From an uncultured Elusimicrobia bacterium (GTDB taxonomy: Bacteria > Elusimicrobiota > Elusimicrobia > UBA1565 > UBA9628): a stretch of DNA of 54,760 nt. Position numbers and translations under genes: made by a program. The DNA is taken from assembly GCA_964358065.1 (NCBI GenBank), contig CAYHNV010000002.1, positions 1 to 54,760 of the forward strand, given 5' to 3'. Of the stretch, positions 14,407 to 32,348 are shown piece by piece; the first letter of the stretch is position 1, and every line of letters begins with the position of its first letter. The notes below the pieces were generated by a model, which made no database searches, was not told the origin of the DNA, and saw only the letters and a list, made by a program, of their open reading frames with translations.

Positions 14407-15318
14407 TCAGGCTGAGGACAGCTCGGCCATCATGATTTGGGCCGCGCGACCGAGGTTCTTGACCGACAGCGGCCAAGCGGCGAGCATTCTCCGGACGTAG
14501 GAACGGCGTAGGGCGCGGTCGCTTCCGGGCTCGAGGAGGGCGCCGGCGGCGGAGCGGTAGACGTACGAGATGCGGCGCCGCATGCGCAGACGGTCGATCG
14601 ATCCGGGGTTCGGGCCGAATGCGGAGGTAAAATGGTCCCGCAGCAGGGATTCGAGATTCGAGTGGTGATACTCGACTTTGCGGGAGGCCGAGCCTGGTAT
14701 CACTGTATAAGAACTGAGCGTCCGGTCGAGGAAGCGGAACGGCCCCACCCGTGCCAGGCGCAGCCAGAAGTCGTAGTCCTCGACGGTGTTGAACCGGGGG
14801 TCTTCACGGAAGCCGCCGATCTCAAGAGCTTTGTCGCGACGGAAGGTCGCGGCGGACGGCGAGACGGCGTTGCCGATGAAAAGAAGACGCTCGTACATGT
14901 TAGTGACGGCCGGTCCTTTAAATTCGGTGCGCAGGACGCGCCCGTCCCGGACGACGTCGAGGTGGTGCCCAACGAGGACCGCCTCCGGGTGCGCGTCGAA
15001 CTCAGCGACGGTGAGGGCGAGCTTGTCCGGCGTCCAGAAATCATCATGATCGAGAAGCGCGATCAAGTTGCCCTTGGCAAGGCGCAGGCCGGTATTGCGC
15101 GCGGCGGCGATGCGGCCGTTTGGGCGGCGCATACAGATGCCGGGGACGCCCGTCTTCGACAACCATCCATCAACGATGAGTTTTGTTTCATCAGGAGAGC
15201 CGTCGTCCACGACGACGACCTCGAAATCGCGGTAGGTCTGCGCCGCGACCGAGTCCAGCGTCGCCGCGATGAAGCGGGCGGCGGCGTAAGCCGGGACGAC
15301 CACGGAGACCCGGGGCAT
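14407..15318 (-). CDS. GT2 glycosyltransferase
   Basis: Start MPRVSVVVPAYAAARFI at 15318 (1-nt TAATG overlap with kpsF). YRDFEVVVVDDGSPDET and LLDHDDFW. Confidence 0.8.
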   Translation of the reverse strand: MPRVSVVVPAYAAARFIAATLDSVAAQTYRDFEVVVVDDGSPDETKLIVDGWLSKTGVPGICMRRPNGRIAAARNTGLRLAKGNLIALLDHDDFWTPDKLALTVAEFDAHPEAVLVGHHLDVVRDGRVLRTEFKGPAVTNMYERLLFIGNAVSPSAATFRRDKALEIGGFREDPRFNTVEDYDFWLRLARVGPFRFLDRTLSSYTVIPGSASRKVEYHHSNLESLLRDHFTSAFGPNPGSIDRLRMRRRISYVYRSAAGALLEPGSDRALRRSYVRRMLAAWPLSVKNLGRAAQIMMAELSSA

Positions 15319-16304
15319 TACAGCCCGCGCGCGTGCAGGTCGTGGATGTGAATCATGCCGACCGAGCGTCCGTGGGAGTCCACGACGGGCAGGACATTGA
15401 AGGGATTCTTGCGATCCTCCATGATCTCGACCGCGCGGGCGGCCAGAGAGGTCGGGGCGATCTTTGTCGGCCGGCGATTCATGATGCTCTGGACCGGGAG
15501 CTTGCGGATGTCGAAGCCTTTCCCTAATACCTGGCGGATATCGAAGTCGGTGATGAGCCCGAGGAAGCGGCTGCGGCGGTCGATGACCGATACCGCCCCG
15601 GCGCACATGCGCGTCATCTCAATGAGCATCGACATGGCGGAGACGTCGGAGCGTACGACTGGGTTGTCCGTGCCGCAGCGCATGATATCTGAGACCTTGA
15701 GCGTGAGGCGGCGGCCAAGGCGTCCGCCCGGATGGTTGAGCGCGAAGTGCTCACGGTCGAAGCCGCGGACCTTCATGAGTGCTACGGCCAGCGCGTCGCC
15801 GGCGGCCAGGGCTGCCGTCGTGCTGCAGGTCGGTGCGAGGTTGAGCGGACAGGCCTCGGCCTTCACGGGCGTTTCCAGGACCAGCGCGGCGGCGCGGGCG
15901 AGAGTCGAGCGCGGATTGGCGGTCAGCGCCACGATCTTGACGCCGAGGGCGCGCAGGCGCGGCAGGAGCGCGTTAAGCTCGTCGGACTCCCCCGACTTGC
16001 CCACGGCGATCAGGATGTCGCCCTTTTGGACCAGCCCCATGCCGCCGTGCAGGGCGTCGGTCGGGTCCATGTGAACGGCGGGCGTGCCCGTTGACGAAAG
16101 CGTGGCGGCGATTTTCTGCGCGATGAGGCCGGACTTGCCGACGCCGGTCACGAGGACCTTGCCGCTGCATCGGGAGAGAAGCCGCACCGCCGCGGCGTAG
16201 CGCGCGTCGACGGCTCGGCCCAGGCCCACCAGTGTCGCTGTCTCTAAGCGGAGCACACGGCGGATTTCGCGGATGATCTTGGCGTCACGTCGGGAGGGGG
16301 TCAT
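15318..16304 (-). CDS. kpsF: KpsF/GutQ-family sugar-phosphate isomerase (SIS plus two CBS domains)
   Basis: GKVLVTGVGKSGLIAQKIAATLSSTG (SIS), followed by a C-terminal CBS pair. Confidence 0.8.
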   Translation of the reverse strand: MTPSRRDAKIIREIRRVLRLETATLVGLGRAVDARYAAAVRLLSRCSGKVLVTGVGKSGLIAQKIAATLSSTGTPAVHMDPTDALHGGMGLVQKGDILIAVGKSGESDELNALLPRLRALGVKIVALTANPRSTLARAAALVLETPVKAEACPLNLAPTCSTTAALAAGDALAVALMKVRGFDREHFALNHPGGRLGRRLTLKVSDIMRCGTDNPVVRSDVSAMSMLIEMTRMCAGAVSVIDRRSRFLGLITDFDIRQVLGKGFDIRKLPVQSIMNRRPTKIAPTSLAARAVEIMEDRKNPFNVLPVVDSHGRSVGMIHIHDLHARGL

Positions 16305-17045: not shown

Positions 17046-17950
17046 GCCCCTTCCTCCATATCCGCCTTCATCGCGGCCAGCCCCTCGGCGAGGGTCATGG
17101 CCCGCACGCCGAGCTCCCGCTCCATGCGCGCGACGCGGAAGGTCGTGTTCTTCGGGCGCAGCGCGATGCCCGGAAAGCGAGAGCTGTCGACGCGCTTGAC
17201 GAGCTCCGCGTCCAGTCCGAACACGGCGGCGAGCTTGCGTCCGAACTGCCAGCGGTTCACCGAGTCTCGTCCGGCGAGGTGGAATATCCCCGAGGGGCGC
17301 TTCTTCAGGATGGCCCACAGGGCCTCTCCGCATTGATGGTTGTAGAGCGGGTTCTCGTGCACGTCGTCGACGAGATCCACGGCCTCGCCCTTAAGCAGCT
17401 TCTCGTAGATCCAGGTCGCGGGATTCGGGCGGGTGACCATGCGGTTCCAGCCGTACATCAGGATCGGGCGCACGATCGTCCACTTCTCGAGCGTCTCCTG
17501 CACGAGCCGCTCGCACTCGACCTTCAGTCGCCCATATTTGTTGACCGGCCGGACCGGGTCGGACTCGCGGTAGGGCGGCTTGGTCCCGTCGAAGACGGCG
17601 TTCGTCGAGACGTAGACCAGGTGGATGCCGCGCTGGCGGCAGGCGGCGGTCACGTTGAGCGTGCTGACGATATTGGACTCGAGACTCTCGGCGTAATGGC
17701 GTTCGACGTAGTCGACGCTGGCGATGCCGGCGGCGTGCACGACCGCGTCGAAGCGGTGTCGCGAGAACAGGCGCTCGACGGCGCGCTTGTCTCTCAGGTC
17801 GAGCGCCAGGTGCGTCGCGCGGCCTCTCGGCACCTTATAGTCGCGCAGATGGACGGAGACGATCTTGGTCCCCGCGGGGGCGGTCTCATCCATGCCCTTG
17901 CCGAGCAGGCCGGTGCCGCCGGTGATCAGGATGCTCTGCGGTTTCTTCAT
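17042..17950 (-). CDS. RmlD-like NDP-4-keto-sugar reductase (extended SDR)
   Basis: MKKPQSILITGGTGLLGKG and YGRLKVECE (YxxxK). About 300 aa. Confidence 0.65.
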   Translation of the reverse strand: MKKPQSILITGGTGLLGKGMDETAPAGTKIVSVHLRDYKVPRGRATHLALDLRDKRAVERLFSRHRFDAVVHAAGIASVDYVERHYAESLESNIVSTLNVTAACRQRGIHLVYVSTNAVFDGTKPPYRESDPVRPVNKYGRLKVECERLVQETLEKWTIVRPILMYGWNRMVTRPNPATWIYEKLLKGEAVDLVDDVHENPLYNHQCGEALWAILKKRPSGIFHLAGRDSVNRWQFGRKLAAVFGLDAELVKRVDSSRFPGIALRPKNTTFRVARMERELGVRAMTLAEGLAAMKADMEEGA

Positions 17951-19089
17951 GACAGCCATTCCCCTTCCCACAAGCCCTTGAAGAACTCCTGGACGGGAAG
18001 GAGGACGATCCCGTCTTCCGTTTTCCGGCGCGAACGCTCCAGGCAGACGACCAAAGAGTGTTTGAGTTTGACTTCCTCCCTCAGCGCGCGCAGACCCTTC
18101 AAGTCCCTTTCGGTCACGGAAGCCTTGGCCTTCACCTCGACGGCGACGGCGTCGCCCACCACGAAATCCACTTCGAATTGGGATTGGGAGCGCCAGTAGG
18201 TGAGCGGAACGGTCAGGCGGCGGTAATCCAGGAAAGACCGCAGCTCGAGGAAGACCTGATGTTCCAGGGCCTGCCCGAAAGACGCCGAACCCGGGGAATG
18301 GGACTCGATGTGCTTCAGGACGTTGGCGATGCCCACATCGAAGAGGTAGAACTTGGCCATGGCCACGGGCTTGCGCTTCAGGGTCTTCTGATAGGCCGGC
18401 AGCAGATGCCCCACCAAGGTGTCCACCAAGACTTGATAATGCTCCCGCACCGTCCGGGCCGGAACGCCGGCGTCGTTGGCCACGGCCGTGTAATTGACCT
18501 GTTCCCCGCTGGTCATCCCCGCCACATCCAGGAATCGGGAGAAATTCTCAATGGAACGGATCAGGCCCTCCGCCCGGATCTCTTCGCGCAGATAGGCGCC
18601 CACATAAGCTCTCAGATCCTCCAGAGGTCGTTGAGAATTCAAGATCGACGGCAACCCCCCGCGGTTGAGCCGCTGACTCAGGGGGACTCCAGCCGTCTCG
18701 GCGGAAACCAAGGGGTTCAGCGCGGCCATCCAGGCCCTTCCCCCGAGGAGATTGGCCGCTCCGCGGCGGAGCTTTCGGGCGCTCGAGCCCGTCATCACCA
18801 CCCGCAGCGATGGGTTGCGATCCAGCATCAGCTGGACCTCGTTGAGAAGGATGGGGAGTTTTTGGATCTCATCGATGACCAGGCATGATCTTCGGTCGGG
18901 ATGCCTCTGGCGCAGGCGCTCGGGGTGGGAACTCAACTCGTGAAAGGTCTCCGATTCCAGCAGATCGACGAAGACCGCCTCGGGAAGGGAGGCCCGGAGA
19001 AGAGTGCTTTTCCCGGTCTGCCGGGGGCCTAGCAGGAAAAAGGACTTATGGCTCAGGAGCGCGGGAAGGTCGAGGAGCCGTTTGTACAT
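17947..19089 (-). CDS. AAA+ ATPase with DUF4143 and a PD-(D/E)xK-like C-terminus
   Basis: Walker A GPRQTGKST and Walker B CLVIDEIQ. C-terminal EVDFVV...VAVEVKA. ATGA overlap with the downstream reductase gene. Confidence 0.75.
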   Translation of the reverse strand: MYKRLLDLPALLSHKSFFLLGPRQTGKSTLLRASLPEAVFVDLLESETFHELSSHPERLRQRHPDRRSCLVIDEIQKLPILLNEVQLMLDRNPSLRVVMTGSSARKLRRGAANLLGGRAWMAALNPLVSAETAGVPLSQRLNRGGLPSILNSQRPLEDLRAYVGAYLREEIRAEGLIRSIENFSRFLDVAGMTSGEQVNYTAVANDAGVPARTVREHYQVLVDTLVGHLLPAYQKTLKRKPVAMAKFYLFDVGIANVLKHIESHSPGSASFGQALEHQVFLELRSFLDYRRLTVPLTYWRSQSQFEVDFVVGDAVAVEVKAKASVTERDLKGLRALREEVKLKHSLVVCLERSRRKTEDGIVLLPVQEFFKGLWEGEWLS

Positions 19090-21241: not shown

Positions 21242-22000
21242 ATGTCCTCCTCGCAGCCTCTGACGGATCCGGAGTTCTGGGACCGTTTTTGGGGGAACGT
21301 CCGTCTGCCAGCGTTTCCGGACGCCTCTCGGCGCTACGAGCGCTGCTTCCTGGAGATCTTTGAGCGTTTCTTTAAGCCCGATCCAGGCCTCCGGGTTTTT
21401 GAAGCCGGCTGTGCTCCCGGTGCTTGGCTTTCCTATTTCAGCCGCCATTTCGGTTATCAGGCTTACGGCTGTGACACGTCGCCGCGTGGGGTCGAACTGA
21501 CGCGGGAGAATTTCCGCCTTTGCGGCATCGCCGGCACGGTGGTCCAGACGGAATTTCTGGATGTTCCCGGCGAGGGCACCTTCGATGTGGTCTTGTCGCT
21601 GGGCTTCATCGAGCATTTCGCCGATCCGGGCCCCGTGCTGGACAAGCATGTGCGCCTGCTTAAGCCGGGGGGAGTTCTGGTGCTTGAGGTCCCGAACCTG
21701 GTTGGTCTCAACGCCTGGCTGGTTACCCCAGAATTGCTCGCGGTGCATAATCAGACGGTCATGAATAGGCTCTTTTTCGAGGACTTCGGGAGAAGTCGGG
21801 GGCTGGAAACACTCTTCCTGGGCTATATCGGCGGCTTCGAGCCGGACAACTTGGGGCCGCCGCGCCCGGCGCTGCTGCGCCGTGTCGTGCTGAAGGCGCT
21901 TCGAATCCTGCGGGCTCTTCCAGGCACGGGCAAGCTTAATTCCGTTCTCTTCAGCGGCTTCCTGATCGGTCTCTACCGTAAGCCGCGCGAAGTGCGCTGA
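21242..22000 (+). CDS. class I SAM-dependent methyltransferase
   Basis: ATG at 21242 (the track starts at TTG 21221). VFEAGCAPGAWL and LKPGGVLVLE. Confidence 0.7.
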   Translation: MSSSQPLTDPEFWDRFWGNVRLPAFPDASRRYERCFLEIFERFFKPDPGLRVFEAGCAPGAWLSYFSRHFGYQAYGCDTSPRGVELTRENFRLCGIAGTVVQTEFLDVPGEGTFDVVLSLGFIEHFADPGPVLDKHVRLLKPGGVLVLEVPNLVGLNAWLVTPELLAVHNQTVMNRLFFEDFGRSRGLETLFLGYIGGFEPDNLGPPRPALLRRVVLKALRILRALPGTGKLNSVLFSGFLIGLYRKPREVR

Positions 22001-23736
22001 AGCGTCTCTTCGACGAAAGCCCGGACAGCCGGCAGGCTGGGATCGAGGCCGCGGCCGTGGCGCGACAGGTATTCGGCGCGTGCCGCCTCCTCGCCGCAGG
22101 GGAGCTCCCCCGTGATCCAGAGCTCGAGAAGGGCGATGAAGGCATCATCATCCGCCGCGCAGGCGGCGGCGCGGCGAAGCGCGGGCTCGCCTTCCGGCGC
22201 GACATGAAATGGATCGCCGATATGGCAGGCAAGTTTGGCACCTTTGGCCATGGCCTGCAGCAGGCCGGTGCAGGGGTAATCCATGATGATGCCCTCATAG
22301 CCTGAAAAATAGCGGTCGGGATCGAGAGGAGACTGGTCGAAGCTCACGTTCTTGATTCCGCAGTTGGCGATGAATTCAGACAAAGGTTCATACAAGCACC
22401 AATTGTATTGGGCCGGATGCTGGCGCAGGACGAGGGTTGATTCAGGACGCCGCGCGAAAAGTTTGAGAACGCGGCGGTGGCGGCGGAACATGGCCGTATG
22501 ATCGGTCAGCGGATAGGAAAGGTTTCCGTCGGCGAACAAGGGGTTGCCGGGATTGAGGAGCAGAACATACAGGAACCGGCTTTTTTGCGGGCAAGCGGGC
22601 CGCAACTCGTCGAGCAAGGTGCTGCCCATTCGATAGACGCGGCCATCCGCGCGCAGACCGGAGAGGAAGGCGGCGTCGTCGGAGCCGTAAGCCAGATTAT
22701 GGCTGGCGGGGACGGTTTCAGCCGCGGCTGTCAGCCCGAAATGCTGCATGTAGCCGCCGTGCTGGTAGAAGACCGTAGGTAATGCCTGCGCCTTTAGAAA
22801 GTAATTGACCAAGTATTCCTCGGGCGAACCGCAGAACGTGCTGAGCGCGCCGCGCAGGTCATGGCGTTTGACCAGGTCTGGTATGTGTTCGGATAGGTGC
22901 CGACGCAGGAGCGCGTAGCGCGCGAAGCACTCCAGCGCGATCGCAAGAAGATGCGGCAGAGTCAGCGGCAGCGTCTGTTGGAATTCCTCTTCCAGCGCGG
23001 AACGAAAGCGCGCGGCGGTTTCGTCGTCGGCGGGGGCGCCTCCCAGCACCAGAGCCTCGGCGGCCAGTTCCGCAGCCGTGAACGAGGAGAACTGCGATTT
23101 TAGGAAAGGCCGTAACGGCGCCCAATCGTAGGCGAAGGCGGTCACCAGTCCCGGTTTTACGCCGCGCGGGGCCAAGCGCGCCAGCTTGCGTAAAAGACCG
23201 GCCGGAGTCAGACGCTTGAGGCGATTGACGAGCCGAGGCAGGAGTTCGGACCGGCGTCGTATGAGGGTGTGTCTCTTCGCCGGCACGACCCAGAAATAAA
23301 GAGCGGCGCGGTTGTAGATGTGATCATTCCAGGAGACGGCGGCGCGGGTGTGATGGGGCAGGTCGCTAAAAATATGGACATCGGCCTGCTCGAGCGAGCG
23401 CCGGCGCAGCTCCTCGGCGAGAGCGTAGTCGGCGAGCATCTTGAGTGGCGCCAGCAGGCCCAACCAGCTCTCGCGCTCGGCCCCGAATAGGTCGCGGAAC
23501 ACATGCTCCAGGCGAGTGAAGTTCTCCAGGCCGGAGGCGCGGAATTCGGCGGCATCGACGAGGGCGTCGTTATTCTTGAAAGGGATGTCGGCCTGCTCCA
23601 GCAGCCAGGCGGCCAGCGGGGTGACGGCGTAGACCTCGTCCCAAGGCCGGGCGCGGAGCGCTTCGATCAGGCCGTCTTCGACGACGGGGCGGCGGAGATC
23701 GACGACTGCGATCCGGCCCCTCAGCGTCTCTACCAA
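21973..23736 (-). CDS. hypothetical 587-aa protein, possible KpsC/KpsS-type (Capsule_synth-like) or sialyltransferase-like ulosonic-acid transferase
   Basis: No classical motif at the N-terminus. The C-terminal half has FLYVLLLNPGNPLFADG...LVLRQHPAQ...GIIMDYPCTGLLQAMAKGAKL, which resembles the Q-x-D...K-x-HP...nS-x-x-x-EAl pattern of HP-motif transferases. Confidence 0.35.
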   Translation of the reverse strand: MVETLRGRIAVVDLRRPVVEDGLIEALRARPWDEVYAVTPLAAWLLEQADIPFKNNDALVDAAEFRASGLENFTRLEHVFRDLFGAERESWLGLLAPLKMLADYALAEELRRRSLEQADVHIFSDLPHHTRAAVSWNDHIYNRAALYFWVVPAKRHTLIRRRSELLPRLVNRLKRLTPAGLLRKLARLAPRGVKPGLVTAFAYDWAPLRPFLKSQFSSFTAAELAAEALVLGGAPADDETAARFRSALEEEFQQTLPLTLPHLLAIALECFARYALLRRHLSEHIPDLVKRHDLRGALSTFCGSPEEYLVNYFLKAQALPTVFYQHGGYMQHFGLTAAAETVPASHNLAYGSDDAAFLSGLRADGRVYRMGSTLLDELRPACPQKSRFLYVLLLNPGNPLFADGNLSYPLTDHTAMFRRHRRVLKLFARRPESTLVLRQHPAQYNWCLYEPLSEFIANCGIKNVSFDQSPLDPDRYFSGYEGIIMDYPCTGLLQAMAKGAKLACHIGDPFHVAPEGEPALRRAAACAADDDAFIALLELWITGELPCGEEAARAEYLSRHGRGLDPSLPAVRAFVEETLQRTSRGLR

Positions 23737-24566
23737 GTCGTTCGACCGCCGTCGATGACGACGTTGGTCCCCGTCATGTAGGAGGATGCGTCGGATACCA
23801 TGAATTGGACGGCGCCCTTGTACTCGTCTTTGCGTGCCATGCGCCCGATGGGGATCAGCGACGAAAGCCGCGCGACGAAGTCCTCATTCTGGTTGTGGCG
23901 TACTCCGCCCGGCGACAGGGTGTTGACGCGCACGCCGTCCTGCGCCCAATAGGTGGCGAGGTAGCGGGTCAGGCCCACGAGCCCGCTCTTGACGACGGAG
24001 TAGCTGACGGGTTTGACGGGCTGGTCGCGCTCGGCAAGGCCGGGCCGGCGATAGAGGCGCTGGTCGGGCGCGATCACCGCCAGATCGGACGCGATATTGA
24101 GGATGACGCCACGTCCGCGCCGAGCCATCTCGGCACCCAGCACGCGGCTGCACAGGAAGGCGCCCGTCAAGCCGACGGCCAGGTCCTTTTCCCATTGCGC
24201 GACGGGAAAGGCCTCGAGCCGCGACCAGTGGCCGCCGCCCTTAGCCGACGGGCCGACTTTTGGGTCGTTGGCGGCGTTGTTAATCAGGATGTCCACGCGG
24301 CCGAAGCGCTTGAGGACGGTCTTAAGAAGATCTTTGACGCATGCCTCGTCGGTGATGTTGCAGCCGACTCCCAGGGCCTGGGTTTTGAAGCGCTTCGCCA
24401 AAGAGGCCGCAGCTTTGGTCGCCTTGGCCGCGTCGATGTCGGCGAGGACGGGACGGCCTCCGGCCTCGGCCACGGCCTCGGCGTGCATGAGGCCGAGCAG
24501 GCCGGCACCGCCGGTGATGACGGCGACGCGGCCATTGAGCCTGAATCGGGACAAGGGTTTCGTCAT
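23730..24566 (-). CDS. short-chain dehydrogenase/reductase
   Basis: VAVITGGAGLLG, NNAA, YSVVKSG (YxxxK). Confidence 0.8.
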   Translation of the reverse strand: MTKPLSRFRLNGRVAVITGGAGLLGLMHAEAVAEAGGRPVLADIDAAKATKAAASLAKRFKTQALGVGCNITDEACVKDLLKTVLKRFGRVDILINNAANDPKVGPSAKGGGHWSRLEAFPVAQWEKDLAVGLTGAFLCSRVLGAEMARRGRGVILNIASDLAVIAPDQRLYRRPGLAERDQPVKPVSYSVVKSGLVGLTRYLATYWAQDGVRVNTLSPGGVRHNQNEDFVARLSSLIPIGRMARKDEYKGAVQFMVSDASSYMTGTNVVIDGGRTTW

Positions 24567-25339
24567 GAGAGGCTCCTGGTCTGTCCGCCGTCGACGACGA
24601 GCGCGGCTCCGGTGATGAAGGCGGCGCGGCTCGAGGCGAGGAAGGCGACGGCGTCGGCAATCTCCTTGGGAGAGCCGAAGCGCGCCATCGGCACTTTGGC
24701 GCGGATGTGTCCGGTCACCTTGGCGCTGTCTTCCTTGCGCTTAATGTCCCACGTGCCGCCGGGGAAATCGATATTGCCCGGTACGACGGCGTTGACTCGG
24801 ATGGAGTCCTTCGCCAGGTCGCGGGACAGAGCCTTCATCCACGCGTGCAGGGCGGCCTTGGCCGATGAGTAGGCGACCGGCGCGCCAAGATCCTCGAGGC
24901 CGGCGATTGAGCCCACGATGACGATGGCGCCGCCCTGGCGCTTGAGCGCGGGAGCCGCGTGGCGTACGGCGCAGATGGGCGCGCGCAGGTTCTGGCTCAA
25001 CGCCAGGTCCCAGTCCGCGTCGGTGGGGAGGGAGCCGCCGGGGATGCTGCCCGTTCCAACATTGATCGCGGTGATGTCCAGACGCCCCCAGCGCTTCAGT
25101 ATGCCGACGACGGCCGCGGCGGACTGATTGTCCACGGAGAGATCGGCGGCGTAGGCGGCGATTCGATCGGTCCCGAACTCTTTTCCCAGGCATGCGACGC
25201 TTTCGGCCAGTGGCCCGGTCGAGCGCGCGGTCAGGGCGACACGGCAGCCTTCAGCGGCCAGACCGCGCGCGATCGCGAGCCCGATGCCGCGGGATGCGCC
25301 GGCCACCCATGCGACCTTATCCTTGAGCCCTAGATCCAT
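24563..25339 (-). CDS. short-chain dehydrogenase/reductase (FabG-like)
   Basis: AWVAGASRGIGLAIA and YSSAKAAL. ATGA overlap with the downstream SDR. Confidence 0.8.
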   Translation of the reverse strand: MDLGLKDKVAWVAGASRGIGLAIARGLAAEGCRVALTARSTGPLAESVACLGKEFGTDRIAAYAADLSVDNQSAAAVVGILKRWGRLDITAINVGTGSIPGGSLPTDADWDLALSQNLRAPICAVRHAAPALKRQGGAIVIVGSIAGLEDLGAPVAYSSAKAALHAWMKALSRDLAKDSIRVNAVVPGNIDFPGGTWDIKRKEDSAKVTGHIRAKVPMARFGSPKEIADAVAFLASSRAAFITGAALVVDGGQTRSLS

Positions 25340-26183
25340 GTTCCGCCTCCAGACGTCCGATCAAGCCCCGCGCGTATGCCGTGTTCTTCTTGATCCACGC
25401 GACCTCGTCGCCTTCCGTCCCGCGCGCGATTTGGAGGACGAAGTGCCCTTTGTAGGCGCACGCGCGAAGTTCGGCGAATGTCGCGGCGAAATCGGCGCTG
25501 CCGGTGCCCAGCGGGACTGTGCCGCCGCCGCGTACGCGGTCCTTGATGTGGACGCAGGAAATCCAGCGGCCGACGGCCGCGAACTCGTCTTTCGCTCCGT
25601 AGCCCAGCGATGCTGAGTTCCCGATGTCGTGGTTGGCACCGACGGAGTCATGCCCGATTCTCTCGAGTAGGTCGCGGAAAGCGGCGGGTTCCAGCGAAGT
25701 TTCCAAGCACAGCTTGAGCCCGGCGCGGACGGCGAGTGGAGCGGCTTGGCGAAAGACGGAGACGACGGTTTCGAAGGCCGCGGCCGTGCCGATGGCGGAG
25801 GCGTCCACGAAGGGGATGTCCATGTGTTCCAAGCCCGCCGCGCCGGCGGCGGCGATCATTTGTTTCAGTGCGGTTTCGCGGGCGCGCTGTTCCGCGGCTG
25901 GGGCCGAATGGAGGGGGCGGGGAATGAACAAGTCGGCGCAGGCCGAGCGCACCTTCACGCCGGTACGGCGGGAGAGTCCGGCAATCTCAATACGGCCGGC
26001 GTCCGTCATCAGCGGGTTGCTCTCCCAGTCAGGGTCGTCGATAATCCATTCGATGCGTTGAAGCCCGCACTCGGCCGCACGCGCGAACTCTTCGCGCCAC
26101 TGGGTGGCGGGGAAGGACTGGAAGAGGCCGCCTTCCCGCGGCGACAAGCGGCCCTGCATGGTCGCCAGTTCGTGCCGGTTCAT
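25317..26183 (-). CDS. sugar-phosphate isomerase/epimerase (xylose-isomerase-like TIM barrel)
   Basis: Start MNRHELATMQGRLSP at 26183 (ATGA overlap). IEWIID...LETS...HDIGN...HIKD resembles the metal-ligand pattern of the AP_endonuc_2 family. Confidence 0.65.
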   Translation of the reverse strand: MNRHELATMQGRLSPREGGLFQSFPATQWREEFARAAECGLQRIEWIIDDPDWESNPLMTDAGRIEIAGLSRRTGVKVRSACADLFIPRPLHSAPAAEQRARETALKQMIAAAGAAGLEHMDIPFVDASAIGTAAAFETVVSVFRQAAPLAVRAGLKLCLETSLEPAAFRDLLERIGHDSVGANHDIGNSASLGYGAKDEFAAVGRWISCVHIKDRVRGGGTVPLGTGSADFAATFAELRACAYKGHFVLQIARGTEGDEVAWIKKNTAYARGLIGRLEAEHGSRAQG

Positions 26184-26644
26184 TTGGCGACCATCTCCAC
26201 GAGTTCGATGATGGTGCCGTCCGGGTCGTGCGCGTAGGCGACCTTCGTCCTGCCGTCGGGCGAGAGGATGGGGAGATTGTTGACCCTGAGGCCGCATCGC
26301 GTGATTTCCATACACAGCGCCGAGACGTTTGGTACGGTGAACGCCACGTGCGACGCACCCACGTCGTTGGAGCGCCGTTGCTTGGGCGCGGAGCGGGGAT
26401 GGGAGAGGTACTGCAGAAGTTCAACCAGGCCGCCGCCGGGAGCTTTGAGCTTCACCCACTTGATGCGCGCGCCCCTGAGCCCGACCACGGTGTCGATGTA
26501 GGGCCCGCTTTCCGTCATGGTTCGCCAGGGCTTGAGGCCAAGTAGATCGCGGTAGAATCCGAGAGAACGCGCCAAATCCGTCACGACGATGCCGGTGTGG
26601 CGCAACGCCGTGACTCCTAGCGCCTGACGGCGGTTGCGAGACAT
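26180..26644 (-). CDS. VOC/glyoxalase-family protein
   Basis: LRHTGIVVTDLARSLGFYRDLLGL and HVAFTV...DPDGTIIELVE. The start could instead be GTG at 26614. Confidence 0.75.
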   Translation of the reverse strand: MSRNRRQALGVTALRHTGIVVTDLARSLGFYRDLLGLKPWRTMTESGPYIDTVVGLRGARIKWVKLKAPGGGLVELLQYLSHPRSAPKQRRSNDVGASHVAFTVPNVSALCMEITRCGLRVNNLPILSPDGRTKVAYAHDPDGTIIELVEMVAK

Positions 26645-28008
26645 TCGGCCAGGGCCTCCTCGACGACATCGATGCCTTCCATCAGGGCGCTCTCGGAGAT
26701 GGTGAGGGGCGGCCCCATCTTAATGGAGCCCACGCCTGTGCGGATGAGCAGCAGTCCTTTGTTGACGGCCGCCTCCGTGACGCGGTCGCCCAGGTTCACG
26801 TCCAATTCTCCCGGCTTGTCGCCGGCTAAAAGCAGACCCCATAGCAGGCCGTGGCCGAAGACGTGGGCGACCGCAGCAGGGAAGCGCTTCTGGATGCGTT
26901 CTAGCCGCGCACGGACTTGCGGCTCGAGCCCGGCTGCGCGTTCGGGGAGGCGCTCGTCATGCAGGACTTCGAGCGTGGCGGCACCGGCCGCGGCGCATAG
27001 AGGATTTCCCGAGTGCGTGCTGTTGAGCGAGGGGTCTAAGTTGAGTATTTCCGCGCGGGAGAGCACGGCCGAGAGGGGCACGCCCGAGCTGATGCCTTTG
27101 CCGCAGCAGATGATATCGGCCTTGACCCCGAAGTGTTCGTGCGCGAACATTTTTCCGGTGCGCCCGAAACCGGACTGGACTTCGTCGAAGCACAGCAGGG
27201 CCTGGTGCTTGTCAGCCCAACGGCGCACGGCCGACACGTAATCCTTCGGGTAGAAAAGCGCGGCCCAGCCCTGGTAGGGTTCCATCAGGAAACCCGCGAT
27301 GTCGTTGGCCTGAATGTCGGAGGTCAGCAGGACCTTCATGTCTTGCTCGAAACGTTCCGCGCCTGATGACTTTCCGTTGGCGTCCCAGGGATACGGGAAC
27401 GGGAGGTGGTGGATGTTTGGGTCGAGCGTACCGATCCAGGCCTTGGCTTCGGCGCGACCGGCCATGGTCTGGGCGCCGAGCGTCTTGCCGTGGAAGGAGT
27501 TGGTCCAGCAGATCATCTTGAGCTTCGTGCTGGAGATCGTTCGGCCGCGTAGGCGGCACAGCTTGAGCGCGCACTCGGTGGTTTCCGCGCCCGTCGAGAG
27601 CAGTAAAGCCTTCTCAATCCCGGGCGGAGCGGCTTCAACGAGCAGGCGGACCAGCTTGGCGCGCACGGCGGTGGGAAAATAGTAGCTGTGGACCAACTTG
27701 CCGTCGATCATGTCGCGCATCGCTTTAAGGACATGCGGATGCGAGTGGCCGGTGTTGGTCACGAAAATACCGGAGGTGAAGTCGATCCAGCGGTTGCCCC
27801 ACGCGTCGAAGACAGAGTGGCCCTCCGCGCGGTCCCACACCACGGGCAGTTGGTCCCAGGTCATGGAGGCGGGCTCGTATTTGGAGAGCTCCTTAAGGAT
27901 GGGCAGCGCCTGCGGCGGCGGCTGCGGGGTCACGATGCGGCGGTGGCGCGTCTCGACGCGCGGCACCGAAACGGGAGTGAGGCGCGCGGGGGGGGGATTG
28001 TCGGCCAT
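26617..28008 (-). CDS. class-III (Aminotran_3) PLP-dependent aminotransferase
   Basis: Start MADNPPP at 28008 (TAATG overlap). NTGHSHPHV, FDEVQSGFGRTGKMFA, and the PLP Lys in CCGKGISSG. Confidence 0.85.
   Translation of the reverse strand: MADNPPPARLTPVSVPRVETRHRRIVTPQPPPQALPILKELSKYEPASMTWDQLPVVWDRAEGHSVFDAWGNRWIDFTSGIFVTNTGHSHPHVLKAMRDMIDGKLVHSYYFPTAVRAKLVRLLVEAAPPGIEKALLLSTGAETTECALKLCRLRGRTISSTKLKMICWTNSFHGKTLGAQTMAGRAEAKAWIGTLDPNIHHLPFPYPWDANGKSSGAERFEQDMKVLLTSDIQANDIAGFLMEPYQGWAALFYPKDYVSAVRRWADKHQALLCFDEVQSGFGRTGKMFAHEHFGVKADIICCGKGISSGVPLSAVLSRAEILNLDPSLNSTHSGNPLCAAAGAATLEVLHDERLPERAAGLEPQVRARLERIQKRFPAAVAHVFGHGLLWGLLLAGDKPGELDVNLGDRVTEAAVNKGLLLIRTGVGSIKMGPPLTISESALMEGIDVVEEALAECLATAVRR
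27988..27996 (-). repeat. homopolymeric C9 (G9 on the + strand) in codons 5-7 of the aminotransferase gene
   Basis: Counted directly: ggcgcgcGGGGGGGGGattg. It encodes the PPP of MADNPPPARL. It is the longest homopolymer I found in the window. Confidence 0.9.
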
Positions 28009-28673
28009 TAGTCCAGGCTCCCATGGCGTTCGATGAGTCTCAGCATGATCGCTTCGACTGCCCAAAATTGCGTCACGTTATCGATCTCATAGTTGGCATG
28101 ATCGGGGATGACCATCGTCTCGCGCTTGGCGCCGTACCAGTGCCCTTCAGCGAGATGCGGAGTTTTATGGACATACACATTGCCGTCGTCGTAAAACCAG
28201 CCCTTCATTTTTTGACGGGGGACATTATCCATGGTGCCCCACTCGTACTGGTAAGTCATGAAGCCTGTGGCGAGCGTGTCGACGCCAGTTGCGAAGAAGC
28301 GCTCGATTGCCGAGTCGATGATGCCGCCGATGCGGATGGGGGAGGTCGGTTGAAGGAGGACCAAGGCCTCGGGCTTCTCCTGGCGGACGATGTGCTGGAG
28401 CACGGCGACCGTGGTGGCGCCGTCGTCGGCCAATTCTTTCGGGCGCCACAGCACCTCGGCACCGGCTTTCGTGGACACTGCGGCGATCTCGGCGTCCTCG
28501 GTGGAAACGACGAACCGGTCCAGTCGCCTGGAACGCAGGGCCGCCTCGATGGACCAGACGATCAGCGGCTTGCCGGCGATCGTCTTCAGATTTTTACGCG
28601 GGATACCTTTTGAGCCGCCGCGCGCGGGGATGACTCCGAGAATCATGAGACCCTCACTTTTTTGCCGTCCCAA
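28008..28673 (-). CDS. acylneuraminate (NeuA/SpsF-type) cytidylyltransferase family protein
   Basis: GVIPARGGSKGIPRKNLK...GKPLI. The start is either 28673 or, more likely, MILGVIP at 28646. Confidence 0.8.
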   Translation of the reverse strand: MGRQKSEGLMILGVIPARGGSKGIPRKNLKTIAGKPLIVWSIEAALRSRRLDRFVVSTEDAEIAAVSTKAGAEVLWRPKELADDGATTVAVLQHIVRQEKPEALVLLQPTSPIRIGGIIDSAIERFFATGVDTLATGFMTYQYEWGTMDNVPRQKMKGWFYDDGNVYVHKTPHLAEGHWYGAKRETMVIPDHANYEIDNVTQFWAVEAIMLRLIERHGSLD

Positions 28674-29361
28674 GCAGCATCTGTTCTTTGGAGAAGCGGA
28701 TCCAGGTGTTGACCGAGTCGGGCCAAGGCGCGCGGTCCCAGGGGCGATAAGGCAGCGGGATGAGGGCCGTGAGCCAAGCCAGAGGCTTGAGGATCGGCCA
28801 AGCCCAGAGGGCGGGGAGTTGATGTAAGTAATCTACCGATACATCGCGAAAACCTGCCAAAGTCATCGCGTCCGAGAGCGCGTTGGCGCCGAAAGGCTTG
28901 ATGTGTCCTAGATCCTCAAAGAATATTTTTTGTGTGTGCCGCCAGCTGGGAGTCATCAGCACGACCGTGCCGCCGGGCTTGAGCACGCGCAGGCATTCCG
29001 CGATCATGGCTTCCGGCCGATGCAGATGCTCGACGACCGATTTGGAGAAGACGTAATCGAAGCTGGCGTCGGGAAACGGGAACGCCTGCCAATCAAGGTT
29101 GAGGGTCTTGATCTCGCAGTCGGCGGCGAAGCCGGCGGAGCTGGCGGCGGAATCGACGCCGACGCCGGAAAATCCCAGCCGCACGAATTCCTGCAGGTAC
29201 TCGCCCCGGCCGCACCCGACGTCGAGCAGACGCCCAGGCCGCCCATAGACGGTCTCCGCCAGGCGTCGGGTCAGCCTGGCCGGGTAGATCGTCTTGGGAA
29301 GGCGGCCCAAGGCATAGGTGACTTGGAGATAGTCGGGTTTTCCGGGGGTGTCTGCCTTCAT
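28654..29361 (-). CDS. class I SAM-dependent methyltransferase
   Basis: LLDVGCGRGEYL and LKPGGTVVLMTP. ATGA overlap with the upstream HAD gene stop. Confidence 0.8.
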   Translation of the reverse strand: MKADTPGKPDYLQVTYALGRLPKTIYPARLTRRLAETVYGRPGRLLDVGCGRGEYLQEFVRLGFSGVGVDSAASSAGFAADCEIKTLNLDWQAFPFPDASFDYVFSKSVVEHLHRPEAMIAECLRVLKPGGTVVLMTPSWRHTQKIFFEDLGHIKPFGANALSDAMTLAGFRDVSVDYLHQLPALWAWPILKPLAWLTALIPLPYRPWDRAPWPDSVNTWIRFSKEQMLLGTAKK

Positions 29362-29663
29362 GGCGTTGCGAGCCAGTCCTTGATGTTGACGGCCTTGTCA
29401 TCGATGTAGAGGTCGGCGGTCGGCTTGCCGAAGTACAGTTCGTGGTAGCGTACGCCCCAGTCCCGCATCTGACGCTCGGTCGTCGCGCGCCAGTCGATGC
29501 CCGTCGTCGAGCCTCGGGCCGTGTAAAGCAGTACCCGGTGCTTGGCTTCGAAGAGCGTGTTGACGCGGGCGATGGTCGCCGGCACCGGCAGGGCGCTCTC
29601 GTAGTCGCCCTCCGTGTTGGTGCATAGAGTCCCGTCGATGTCGAAACAGTAAACCACGCTCAA
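29358..29663 (-). CDS. capless (C0) HAD-superfamily phosphatase, about 100 aa
   Basis: TTG at 29663 (TTGA overlap with the neuB-like stop) or GTG at 29657. All four HAD motifs are present: FDIDGTL, LYTAR, GKP, YIDDK. Confidence 0.65.
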   Translation of the reverse strand: MSVVYCFDIDGTLCTNTEGDYESALPVPATIARVNTLFEAKHRVLLYTARGSTTGIDWRATTERQMRDWGVRYHELYFGKPTADLYIDDKAVNIKDWLATP

Positions 29664-30613
29664 GGATTCTTGGGCTGCCAGTAGTAGCGGAGCTTCTTGG
29701 CGTTGGCCGTTTCGACGGGGCTGACCCGCTTGACACCGTCGCCCAAGGTTGCGTTGAGGGATCGCAGGTCGCGCAGCAGATATTCCAGGCCACGCGGTTC
29801 CAGGGAGGCGGACTGGTCGCTGCCGTACATGGAGCGGTTGAGCGTGATGTGGCGCTCGACGGACGTAGCGCCCAGCATGACCGCGATCAGAGGGCCGAGC
29901 AGGCCAACTTCGTGGCCCGAGTAGCCGATCGGGCACTTATAGCGCTCACGCAAGGTCTGGATACACAGGATGTTCAACTCCTCGTCCTTGGCCGGGTAGA
30001 CGGAGAGGCAGTGCATCAAGGTGAACGGGCACTTATGCTTCTTGAAGATCTCGACGGCTGCATCGATCTGGGCGAAGTCGCTCATTCCGGTGGAGATGTA
30101 GGTGTGGCGGCCTTCCTTGGCCACTTCTTCAATGAGCGGGATGTGAGTCAGCATCGGGGAAGCGATCTTGTTGAACGGGAGGTCATACTGCTGCAGGAAC
30201 TTCTGGGCGTCAACGTCCCATGCCGAAGCTGACCACTGGATGCCCAGTTGCTTGCAGTAGCGGGCGATTTCGTCGAACTGCTTCTTACCGAATTCCAGGC
30301 CCTCCTTCTGGTGTCGCGTCGTCGTGCCCCAAGGGCTTTCACGCGGAGTGTCCAGGACTTCCTTGGTGTAGACCTTGTCGAGGGTGCGCTTCTGGAACTT
30401 GACGGCGTCGCAGCCGGTCTTGTGGGCCACGTCGATCAGTTGCTTAGCGATCTCCATGTCTCCGTTGTGGTTGATGCCGATTTCGGCGATTATGAAGACG
30501 TGGCCGGGAATCTGAATCGGACCGCGAATCTCCAAGCCCTTGGGCGCGGAGGCGACACTATTGTTAGTCTGGCTCATCGGATTCTCCTTGGATTTCATGT
30601 TATCGTCCATCAC
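29660..30613 (-). CDS. NeuB-family PEP-condensing sugar-acid synthase lacking the C-terminal SAF domain
   Basis: FIIAEIGINHNGDMEIAKQLIDVAHKTGCDAVKFQKR and GYSGHE. The protein ends about 40 aa after the barrel (..LGDGVKRVSPVETANAKKLRYYWQPKNP). The start is ambiguous (30613, 30598 or 30577). Confidence 0.8.
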   Translation of the reverse strand: MMDDNMKSKENPMSQTNNSVASAPKGLEIRGPIQIPGHVFIIAEIGINHNGDMEIAKQLIDVAHKTGCDAVKFQKRTLDKVYTKEVLDTPRESPWGTTTRHQKEGLEFGKKQFDEIARYCKQLGIQWSASAWDVDAQKFLQQYDLPFNKIASPMLTHIPLIEEVAKEGRHTYISTGMSDFAQIDAAVEIFKKHKCPFTLMHCLSVYPAKDEELNILCIQTLRERYKCPIGYSGHEVGLLGPLIAVMLGATSVERHITLNRSMYGSDQSASLEPRGLEYLLRDLRSLNATLGDGVKRVSPVETANAKKLRYYWQPKNP

Positions 30614-32348
30614 GCAAGGTCGCCATCGCTTTGTCCGATGGGGTCAATGGCTTGGACTGGCGCTCCTGGACGATTCTGCGCAGAGACTTGTAGTCGATCG
30701 GGGGCGGGGCCGGGCGAAGTCTGCCCCGCAGGTGTTCCGCCAGATGGCTGACGAACGTGCGCCATGGAAGACGGGCCGATTCCTGCTTAAGAAGCCAAAG
30801 CCAGATGATAAGGCCGCCGATCGGGTAGCAATAGGCCGAGATGATGTGATATTTGAGGTTGCGTTGGAGATTGAAGTAGCCGCCCTTGGCGTACTCGTTG
30901 CGGCGGAAGAGGTCGCGCAGCGGCGGTCGCGGGAGGTTGTTCACCTTTCGATAGTGATGCGTGACGTCAAGTATGATTTGCCGCCGCCAGGATTGGACGG
31001 CCAGGTAATCGGAGTTGGTAAAATTCAAGAACTTGGTCTCGTCGCTGGCGTTGATGTCGGAGATGTCGAGCAGATAGCGTTCCTCGTCGAGCAAAGTCTT
31101 GCCGATGAGCCCTTTGAGACGGGCGTACTCGTACACGGGCGTTCCCGGCAGGGCCTGGATGTAATTGATGCTCATCCGGTTGATGGGCGACTCGTCGAGA
31201 TGTTCCGTGCTGCGCTTCAGGAACTCAATCGTGTCGCGGATCGTCTTCTCGGTCTCGCCGGGCATGCCCAGTATCATCTGGTAGATCGTGTAGAGGCCTG
31301 CATCCTTGGTCCAGCGGACGGCGTTGTCGTTGTCGCTCTGCGTCGCCTTCTTCTCCATCATCTCGAGGATCTCGGCGCTGCCCGTCTCCATACCGTAATA
31401 GACGGCCACGCAGCCCGAATCCTTGAGCCGCCGCAGGATATCAGGATTGACCGTGCGCACGCGCACGCCGCCGACCTGGTAGAGCACGTCCTCGGCCTTC
31501 ATTGCCTCCGTGAACTCAAGGAGATGGCGCCGGTCGGAGCCGAAGTTCTCATCGGAGATCTGGAGGAAGCCGACGCTGTAGTTCTCTTTCAGATAGCGGA
31601 CCATCTTGATGAAATTGGGGATGTTGAAGGCGCGGAAGCCCTTGTTCCAGCGGTGGCAGAAGGTGCAGCGCGCCACGCAGCCCTTCGTCGTGATCAGCGT
31701 CGCCATCTTCTTGCCTTTTCGGTGCGCTTGTTGGCTGCGGGGATCGGCTGCGAAATCGGGGCGAGTCATCGGATCGTTGACGAAGTTCCCGATGAGGGAG
31801 TGCTTCTCAAGGATCAAATAGTCGGGCTCGAAAAGCTCGTCGGCCGCGATGGGTGCCTCGTGGCCGGTAAAAACCATCTCGCCCGAGGCGTCGAGGTAGG
31901 TGATGCCGGGGATCGACAGCAGGGTGGCTTCGTCCTTTGTGCGGCCGGGATGGGTCTTGAAATAGTTCATCAGGTTGCGGACGACGACATCTCCTTCCCC
32001 GATGACGCAGTAGTCGATTCCGACGAGGCGGTGCAGGATCTCGGCCGAGGCCGCCAGGTTTCCGCCGACGATGATGCGGGCGCCAGGGGCGACGCGCTGG
32101 ATCATGAGGACCAGCTTCTTCGTGTAGGCGTAGGCCGTAGAGACGACGGCGGAGATGCCGACGATGTCAGGTTGGGATTCGGCGAAGAATCGCTCGACAT
32201 CTTCGGGGCTCGGGCGCAGGCCGTCGATGTCGTAGAAGGTAGGGTCCCACCCGTCCTTGCGGAGGCTCTGGATGATAGCCATCGAGCCGAAGGGGGGGTA
32301 GTCGGTGGGAGTCGGGCGGATCGGTGTCGTGCAGATGACGATCTTCAT
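30600..32348 (-). CDS. B12-binding-domain radical SAM protein with a C-terminal hydrophobic extension
   Basis: N-terminal cobalamin-binding-like domain (DIVGISAVVSTAY..IIVGG). CxxxCxxC in TTKGCVARCTFCHRW. C-terminal helix YHIISAYCYPIGGLIIWLWLL. Confidence 0.8.
   Translation of the reverse strand: MKIVICTTPIRPTPTDYPPFGSMAIIQSLRKDGWDPTFYDIDGLRPSPEDVERFFAESQPDIVGISAVVSTAYAYTKKLVLMIQRVAPGARIIVGGNLAASAEILHRLVGIDYCVIGEGDVVVRNLMNYFKTHPGRTKDEATLLSIPGITYLDASGEMVFTGHEAPIAADELFEPDYLILEKHSLIGNFVNDPMTRPDFAADPRSQQAHRKGKKMATLITTKGCVARCTFCHRWNKGFRAFNIPNFIKMVRYLKENYSVGFLQISDENFGSDRRHLLEFTEAMKAEDVLYQVGGVRVRTVNPDILRRLKDSGCVAVYYGMETGSAEILEMMEKKATQSDNDNAVRWTKDAGLYTIYQMILGMPGETEKTIRDTIEFLKRSTEHLDESPINRMSINYIQALPGTPVYEYARLKGLIGKTLLDEERYLLDISDINASDETKFLNFTNSDYLAVQSWRRQIILDVTHHYRKVNNLPRPPLRDLFRRNEYAKGGYFNLQRNLKYHIISAYCYPIGGLIIWLWLLKQESARLPWRTFVSHLAEHLRGRLRPAPPPIDYKSLRRIVQERQSKPLTPSDKAMATLRDGR

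Follow-up and report, generated by a model that had tools for sequence, protein, structure and literature searches.

Gene neighbourhoods suggest a phosphorylated route to CMP-ulosonic acids through a SAF-less NeuB-type synthase and a minimal HAD phosphatase

The window analysed here is a stretch of DNA of 54,760 nt from an Elusimicrobia bacterium, and the genes described below lie on its minus strand in a run of tightly packed genes. Positions 29660-30577 encode a predicted phosphoenolpyruvate (PEP)-condensing synthase of the NeuB family (P0001, 305 aa from its ATG), which carries a Pfam NeuB domain and lacks the C-terminal SAF domain. The next gene, at 29358-29663, encodes a capless (C0) phosphatase of the haloacid dehalogenase (HAD) type (P0002; 101 aa from a TTG start, or 99 aa from a GTG at 29657), which we refer to as the mini-HAD. 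The synthase, the phosphatase, and a CTP_transf_3 cytidylyltransferase are encoded together in the window operon, and this arrangement is kept in related loci. The synthase and the mini-HAD probably act at the second and the third step, respectively, of a cytidine monophosphate (CMP)-ulosonic acid pathway that runs via a phosphorylated intermediate.

The sole Pfam match in the synthase is the NeuB barrel (PF03102) at residues 47-283, which covers model positions 1-241 with 233.6 bits against a gathering threshold of 22.1. The protein ends 22 residues past this domain, fewer than the about 40 residues given in the first-pass annotation of this DNA. Its central claim, that the SAF domain is absent, was borne out. 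The N-acetylneuraminate synthase equivalog model TIGR03569 scored 243.8 bits with a cut-off of 399.65, and since its alignment runs over model positions 1-274 and stops there, out of 329, the SAF part is missing. The PseI model TIGR03586 likewise stayed below its cut-off (187.3 bits versus 340.25). No PF08666 (SAF) match was found in the window, the only one in the genome lies on another contig, and no intact SAF domain was found through a frameshift. The genome holds one NeuB gene. Among relatives in other genomes, 140 or more in all, the frame continues for only 0-15 residues beyond the endpoint of the window protein. A protein search matched at least 8000 database clusters, and the best 120 matches were 274-328 aa long, contained the NeuB domain alone, and came from Elusimicrobia, Chloroflexi, Chlamydiae, Nitrospirota-type bacteria, methanogens, and DPANN archaea. 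Among solved structures, the nearest is 6NCS, a 'sialic acid synthetase' of 290 aa from Leptospira borgpetersenii (34% identity over the structural alignment) that is itself SAF-less and for which our literature search turned up neither a publication nor an assay. It has been reported that ~30% of 13,941 bacterial NeuB sequences have no SAF domain, and these were termed 'environmental' (PMC8208679). The loss of SAF is the hallmark of a known, large, and uncharacterised clade and is not peculiar to the window gene. At another locus (L100), the frame of a SAF-less NeuB (~561 aa) extends by ~250 residues, which may reflect either a stop that was missed or the fusion of NeuB to a cytidylyltransferase.

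Judged from its sequence, the synthase looks active. The metal and PEP ligands of Neisseria NeuB (E25, K53, Q55, K129, S132, H215, H236, and D247) correspond to E32, K60, Q62, K137, S140, H222, H243, and D254 in the window protein, and the latter are invariant in 133 family members. In addition, four basic residues in a family-specific segment (K63, R64, R79, and K91) do not vary, and the C-terminal tail is short and of the form E-x5-K-L-R, in which E289, L296, and R297 are invariant and K295 is present in at least 90% of the members. In Neisseria NeuB, Arg314, which is contributed by the SAF domain of the partner subunit, has been reported to be essential, and the PDB contains structures of the R314A and R314K mutants. 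As the window synthase has no SAF domain, it does not have this arginine of N-acetylneuraminate synthase proper. The conservation pattern suggests that the tail and K63, R64, R79, and K91 may close the pocket or bind phosphate, with the tail arginine as a candidate substitute for the SAF arginine. The AlphaFold2 (AF2) model of the synthase has a predicted local distance difference test (pLDDT) score of 87. In a FastTree tree of the synthases, 16 changes were counted versus 49 in shuffles, a clustering that is suggestive but does not amount to a test in a sample that was partly chosen for the mini-HAD.

The mini-HAD has kept all four catalytic motifs that the first-pass annotation had ascribed to it: motif I (DIDGT, with D8 and D10), motif II (T48), motif III (K80), and motif IV (D88-D89), and all are invariant in the mini-HAD family. 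The AF2 model of the 101-aa form (pLDDT 90.9) consists of the core fold only, so that the protein is capless. The annotation had the gene starting within the stop of the synthase gene. A TTG that overlaps the synthase TGA stop (TTGA, a 4-nt overlap) is indeed one possible start, but a GTG two codons downstream, which leaves a 2-nt gap, matches the homologues better: it gives the M-x-Y-C-F-D N-terminus found in them and agrees with the recorded form of 99 aa (P0122). In both cases the genes are tightly packed. With TIGR01689, the model of the EcbF/BcbF capsule biosynthesis phosphatases, the mini-HAD reached 22.6 bits versus a cut-off of 162 bits, which makes it a relative and not a member, and the KdsC/YrbI models TIGR01670 and NF058599 gave no match at E <= 0.1. 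The nearest solved relative is AfhF of phage HY126 (9IQW; 30% identity), a D-arabinose-1,5-bisphosphate phosphatase. AfhF is Mg-dependent and dephosphorylates arabinofuranose-1,5-bisphosphate at its terminal position, in the step that immediately precedes nucleotide activation (PMC13326640). Relatives of the mini-HAD are present in at least 552 species-level genomes (552 among 598 stretches).

The association between the two genes was assessed in three samples: 80 genomes selected solely for the mini-HAD, in which NeuB was sought within 8 kb; 80 loci selected solely for SAF-less NeuB, in which HADs were sought within 6 kb; and, as a control, 40 loci with SAF-containing NeuB from the phylum of the window. 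In the first sample, 70 of the 80 genomes had a NeuB homologue at a distance of up to 8 kb; it lay directly upstream of the mini-HAD in 24, and in 18 only a cytidylyltransferase stood between them. In the second sample, 62 of the 80 loci carried a HAD, which was a mini-HAD in 7 and a KdsC/YrbI-type HAD in 55, and never both. Some of these KdsC-type HADs stood alone beside the synthase, and others formed fusions, either with the cytidylyltransferase (L056 and L068) or with a GmhA-like isomerase (L022 and relatives). Conversely, only 1 of 76 mini-HAD loci contained both HAD types. Neither HAD was found in any of the 40 SAF-containing loci, whereas 8 of 14 SAF-less loci in that phylum had one (Fisher p = 3e-6). 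Owing to the relatedness of the genomes, such p-values overstate the significance, but the contrast between 0 and 57-78% remains clear. The linkage of SAF-less NeuB with an adjacent HAD phosphatase is the new part of this analysis, whereas SAF loss itself was already known. At one locus (L247, G049:C42:11085-13746), a SAF-less NeuB lies ~900 bp from a full-length SAF-containing NeuB on the same contig, thus both NeuB types can coexist in one locus.

The mini-HAD is also found fused to other members of the module. It is fused to SAF-less NeuB in P0328, in which the HAD is N-terminal, and to the cytidylyltransferase in L155:7275-8288. A search for longer proteins returned 1289 that matched the mini-HAD. 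The commonest fusion partner among them was a methyltransferase (~350 aa), and further fusions involved class IV aminotransferases, AP_endonuc_2 proteins, SIS proteins, and a class III aminotransferase together with a cytidylyltransferase (~815-830 aa). These fusions make the mini-HAD an integral member of the module. A different context was found in Solirubrobacterales, where KdsB-like, KpsF/KdsD-like, and KdsA-type (DAHP_synth_1) genes follow a mini-HAD that is fused to a region weakly resembling class IV aminotransferases (L139:7932-12843), and no KdsC-type HAD was detected within 8 kb by tblastn. In this gene arrangement, the mini-HAD of L139 occupies the slot that KdsC would fill, which is an independent pointer to its step. 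L140, L148, and L150 likewise have a mini-HAD in a KdsA-type operon.

The fusion in L155 belongs to a distinct gene order. In this Ignavibacteriaceae locus (L155:7275-9787), a cytidylyltransferase-mini-HAD protein of 337 aa is followed by a NeuB of 495 aa that, according to Pfam, has a C-terminal cupin or lyxose-isomerase-like domain and no SAF, and the module adjoins genes for GFO/IDH/MocA oxidoreductases, a DegT aminotransferase, and a formyltransferase. The same order with a ~500-aa NeuB was seen, by tblastn only, in L152, L156-L160, L164, L165, and L168, which come from Bacteroidota, Opitutales, and an archaeal metagenome-assembled genome (MAG).

From these genes we infer every chemical step of the following pathway, as well as the tailoring order and the identity of the phosphosugar. 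The SAF-less NeuB-type enzyme would condense PEP with a terminally phosphorylated aldose to a 3-deoxy-2-ulosonate omega-phosphate, and the capless HAD of ~100 aa would then remove the phosphate to give the free acid. The CTP_transf_3 enzyme, encoded two genes downstream, would make the CMP-sugar, and the short-chain dehydrogenases/reductases (SDRs), the xylose-isomerase-like barrel, the VOC protein, the class III aminotransferase, the methyltransferase, and the B12 radical S-adenosylmethionine (SAM) enzyme could convert the sugar into an aminated and methylated acid destined for a surface glycan. The phosphorylated route is supported by the synteny, the fusions, the mutual exclusion with KdsC-type HADs, and the HAD-free SAF-containing control. 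It is also supported by the L139 mini-HAD in the KdsC slot, the terminal-phosphate chemistry of AfhF, and the intact catalytic residues in both proteins, and finally by the GmhA-like isomerases and the L-ribulose-5-phosphate 3-epimerase-like barrel in these loci, which handle sugar phosphates. The first-pass annotation had proposed a phosphorylated intermediate by analogy; strong comparative evidence now stands behind this logic, and the route itself is still read from the genes.

As for the substrate, a GmhA-like gene, i.e. one resembling sedoheptulose-7-phosphate isomerase and scoring just under the equivalog cut-off, was present in 36 of the 80 synthase-selected and 21 of the 76 mini-HAD loci, and a heptose phosphate is a possibility in such loci. 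Mannose-6-phosphate and heptose-7-phosphate are the likelier candidates for the phosphosugar, and arabinose-5-phosphate is less likely. Directly beside a SAF-less NeuB, L022:6821-7879 encodes a 352-aa fusion of a KdsC-type HAD with a GmhA-like SIS_2 isomerase, as identified with Pfam and NCBIfam. Open reading frames (ORFs) of 350-362 aa matching this fusion were found by tblastn only in L024, L030, L031, L034, L037, L014, and L015, mostly from Lachnospiraceae, and several loci of this type also carry a thiamine pyrophosphate (TPP) enzyme and an FkbM methyltransferase. The L022-type fusions hint at a heptose-phosphate substrate.

Several observations weigh against the phosphorylated route. No assay of either enzyme family was found in the literature, and a search of the literature on teichulosonic acid, 2-keto-3-deoxynonulosonic acid (Kdn), and NeuB yielded nothing on SAF-less enzymes with phosphatases. 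The substrate of AfhF is a sugar bisphosphate and not an ulosonate. The animal N-acetylneuraminate-9-phosphate synthase retains a SAF-like domain, so that SAF loss is not required for the use of a phosphosugar. No HAD was present within 6 kb in 18 of the 80 SAF-less loci, and the window operon contains neither an isomerase nor a kinase that could supply a phosphosugar, the GmhA-like genes of this genome being located on other contigs. In the synthase, Met142 stands at the position of Glu134 of Neisseria NeuB, and methionine is the commonest residue there (51-75% of the family). Moreover, no residue separated the HAD-linked from the other SAF-less synthases when we filtered for presence in at least 80% of one group and at most 25% of the other, thus nothing in the sequence points specifically to a phosphate pocket. 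Finally, because the fusion partners are so diverse, the fusions indicate that the mini-HAD belongs to the pathway, and not at which step it acts.

This leaves room for the main rival explanation, in which the HAD acts before the synthase and frees the aldose, so that the NeuB-like enzyme uses an unphosphorylated sugar like ordinary bacterial NeuB, LegI, and PseI. Gene order and fusions leave the order of the steps unfixed, and SIS proteins, AP_endonuc_2 proteins, and aminotransferases, to which the mini-HAD is fused, could act early. However, the enzyme that is replaced by the mini-HAD in sister loci is of the KdsC/YrbI type, and the characterised members known of this type act after the condensation, on 3-deoxy-D-manno-octulosonic acid (Kdo)-8-phosphate and Kdn-9-phosphate. 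The mini-HAD in the KdsC slot of L139 stands beside a KdsA-type synthase, which uses arabinose-5-phosphate, and the loci of SAF-containing NeuB, which are free-sugar users, carry no HAD. We therefore regard action of the HAD ahead of the synthase as unlikely. A good deal less likely than this is an alternative Kdo-8-phosphate route, in which KpsF at window position 15318-16304 feeds arabinose-5-phosphate to the NeuB-like enzyme for condensation with PEP. This KpsF had been put forward as pathway evidence in the first-pass annotation; it lies within the same 55-kb glycan region, and the mini-HAD adjoins KpsF-like genes in 6 of the 80 HAD-selected loci, but the loci concerned have a KdsA-type and not a NeuB-type synthase. 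In the window, KpsF is 13 kb from the synthase, behind unrelated genes, and 80 related NeuB loci contained no KpsF homologue at a distance of up to 6 kb from the synthase. It is the sole arabinose-5-phosphate isomerase found in this 90%-complete genome, and since canonical KdsA and KdsB are encoded on contig 3 and KdsC on contig 93, a housekeeping role explains its presence; it is probably a housekeeping Kdo enzyme sited in the glycan region. For these reasons, KpsF was rejected as a feeder enzyme, being unsupported.

The closest characterised homologue, AfhF, suggests yet another role for the HAD, namely that of an AfhF/GmhB-type sugar-1,omega-bisphosphate phosphatase in a separate nucleoside diphosphate (NDP)-sugar branch that merely neighbours the synthase. 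GmhA-like genes, common in these loci, would fit with this. Nevertheless, the operon showed no anomeric kinase, the nucleotidyltransferase that accompanies the HAD is of the CMP-ulosonate type, and both the HAD-NeuB fusion and the exclusion of the KdsC type argue for one shared pathway, which makes a separate branch very improbable. That the short NeuB simply reflects truncation, gene decay, or a frameshift introduced in assembly, with an accidental overlap, has next to no likelihood, as nothing speaks for it beyond the length of the protein. The identity of 60-92% across phyla, the invariant catalytic residues and tail motif, and the crystallised SAF-less member 6NCS all speak against it. We rejected a frameshift or truncation in view of the large number of matching clusters, the endpoint shared with the relatives, the next gene starting at the stop codon, and the location of the only SAF match on another contig.

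The phosphorylated route is set in a larger operon, whose nearest counterpart is L089, on a contig of an Elusimicrobia MAG, with 79-92% protein identity over eight genes. Directly upstream of the synthase, at 30600-32348, lies the gene of a B12-binding radical SAM enzyme (Pfam B12-binding and Radical_SAM, under all NCBIfam cut-offs). This gene is kept in L089 with 79% identity, and either set of 80 loci included 5-7 with weakly similar radical SAM genes. On the other side, the stop codon of the HAD gene overlaps the ATG (ATGA) of a SAM-dependent methyltransferase gene at 28654-29361 (Pfam Methyltransf_23/11/25), and this is followed by the CMP-ulosonate-type cytidylyltransferase at 28008-28673 (CTP_transf_3, PF02348; likely start at the ATG at 28646), which is PseF-like and KdsB-like and scores under the curated cut-offs. 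A class III (omega-type) aminotransferase is encoded at 26617-28008, in an ORF that reaches 28065 (Pfam Aminotran_3, E = 4.7e-86, under every NCBIfam cut-off). It occurs in 15 of the 80 synthase-selected and 20 of the 80 HAD-selected loci. In many loci without it, 33 in number, a class IV aminotransferase (IlvE or D-amino-acid type) substitutes, e.g. L036:7583-8590 and L090:9943-10944; the amination step seems to be conserved and the aminotransferase exchangeable.

The protein of 154 aa encoded at 26180-26644 was assigned to the VOC/glyoxalase fold by position only, because a Pfam-confirmed Glyoxalase ORF cluster (representative L012:8852-9307) follows the aminotransferase at the equivalent place in 25 related loci. 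The next gene, at 25317-26183, encodes a xylose-isomerase-like TIM barrel (AP_endonuc_2, PF01261), which is present in 25 of the 80 synthase-selected and 45 of the 80 HAD-selected loci; NCBIfam models of L-ribulose-5-phosphate 3-epimerase match it far below their cut-offs, a weak likeness. Two SDRs, at 24563-25339 and 23730-24566 (both Pfam adh_short_C2), are conserved in the module. The downstream end of the operon is formed by an orphan gene at 21973-23736, whose 587-aa product gave no match in Pfam or NCBIfam and, by tblastn, no relative in 160 related loci. Elsewhere in the window, an AAA_14/DUF4143 ATPase gene at 17947-19089 stands among sugar-nucleotide and glycosyltransferase genes and seems out of place in the pathway.

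In thousands of genomes from the environment, the gut, and archaea, SAF-less NeuB homologues bear the annotation 'N-acetylneuraminate synthase', a label that implies the free-sugar route to sialic acid. The genomic rule found here is that a HAD phosphatase usually adjoins SAF-less NeuB and not SAF-containing NeuB, which suggests that SAF-less NeuB genes make phosphorylated ulosonates. In addition, a widespread 'hypothetical protein' of 100 aa is probably a stand-in for KdsC. If true, this changes the annotation of a large share of the predicted microbial 'sialic acid' genes and opens a set of acidic surface sugars to study. Apart from the role given to KpsF, the first-pass annotation was thus largely right and is partly supported, with the proviso that both of its features are widespread and not unique to this locus. 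A bolder reading is that the whole SAF-less clade, about one third of bacterial NeuB homologues, consists of ulosonate-phosphate synthases, with SAF loss marking the switch from free sugar to phosphosugar, that some of them, which have GmhA-like heptose-7-phosphate isomerases as partners or fusion partners, condense PEP with a heptose phosphate to a ten-carbon ulosonic acid, a class not yet described, and that the product of the window operon is such a long-chain acid with amino and methyl groups; we consider this speculative and rather doubtful.

Known systems offer partial parallels. Bacteroides thetaiotaomicron makes CMP-Kdn via Kdn-9-phosphate with the synthase BT1714, the phosphatase BT1713, and a CMP-Kdn synthetase, and a synthase has also been described in Prymnesium parvum (PMC6200933). 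Like this route, in which PEP is condensed with a sugar phosphate, the window operon combines a NeuB-family synthase, a capless HAD, and a CTP_transf_3 enzyme in three neighbouring genes, whereas its phosphatase is not of the KdsC type and genes for redox, amination, methylation, and radical SAM chemistry are added. The four-step logic of the Kdo-8-phosphate pathway (KdsD/KpsF, KdsA, KdsC, and KdsB) is shared as well, and in Solirubrobacterales the mini-HAD even stands in the KdsC slot, but the window synthase belongs to the NeuB family and not to DAHP_synth_1, and a canonical Kdo set is encoded separately in this genome. With Neisseria meningitidis NeuB (1XUU/1XUZ), other SAF-containing NeuB enzymes, LegI, and PseI, the synthase has the TIM-barrel fold and the metal and PEP ligands in common. 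It differs from Neisseria NeuB in having no SAF domain or Arg314 equivalent, a methionine in place of Glu134, and a family-specific basic loop and E-x5-KLR tail. The phosphatase has the minimal capless HAD fold of AfhF (9IQW), EcbF/BcbF (TIGR01689), VC 1XPJ, and BT0820 2OBB, and unlike AfhF, which serves a uridine diphosphate (UDP)-arabinose route, the mini-HAD family travels with ulosonate synthases.

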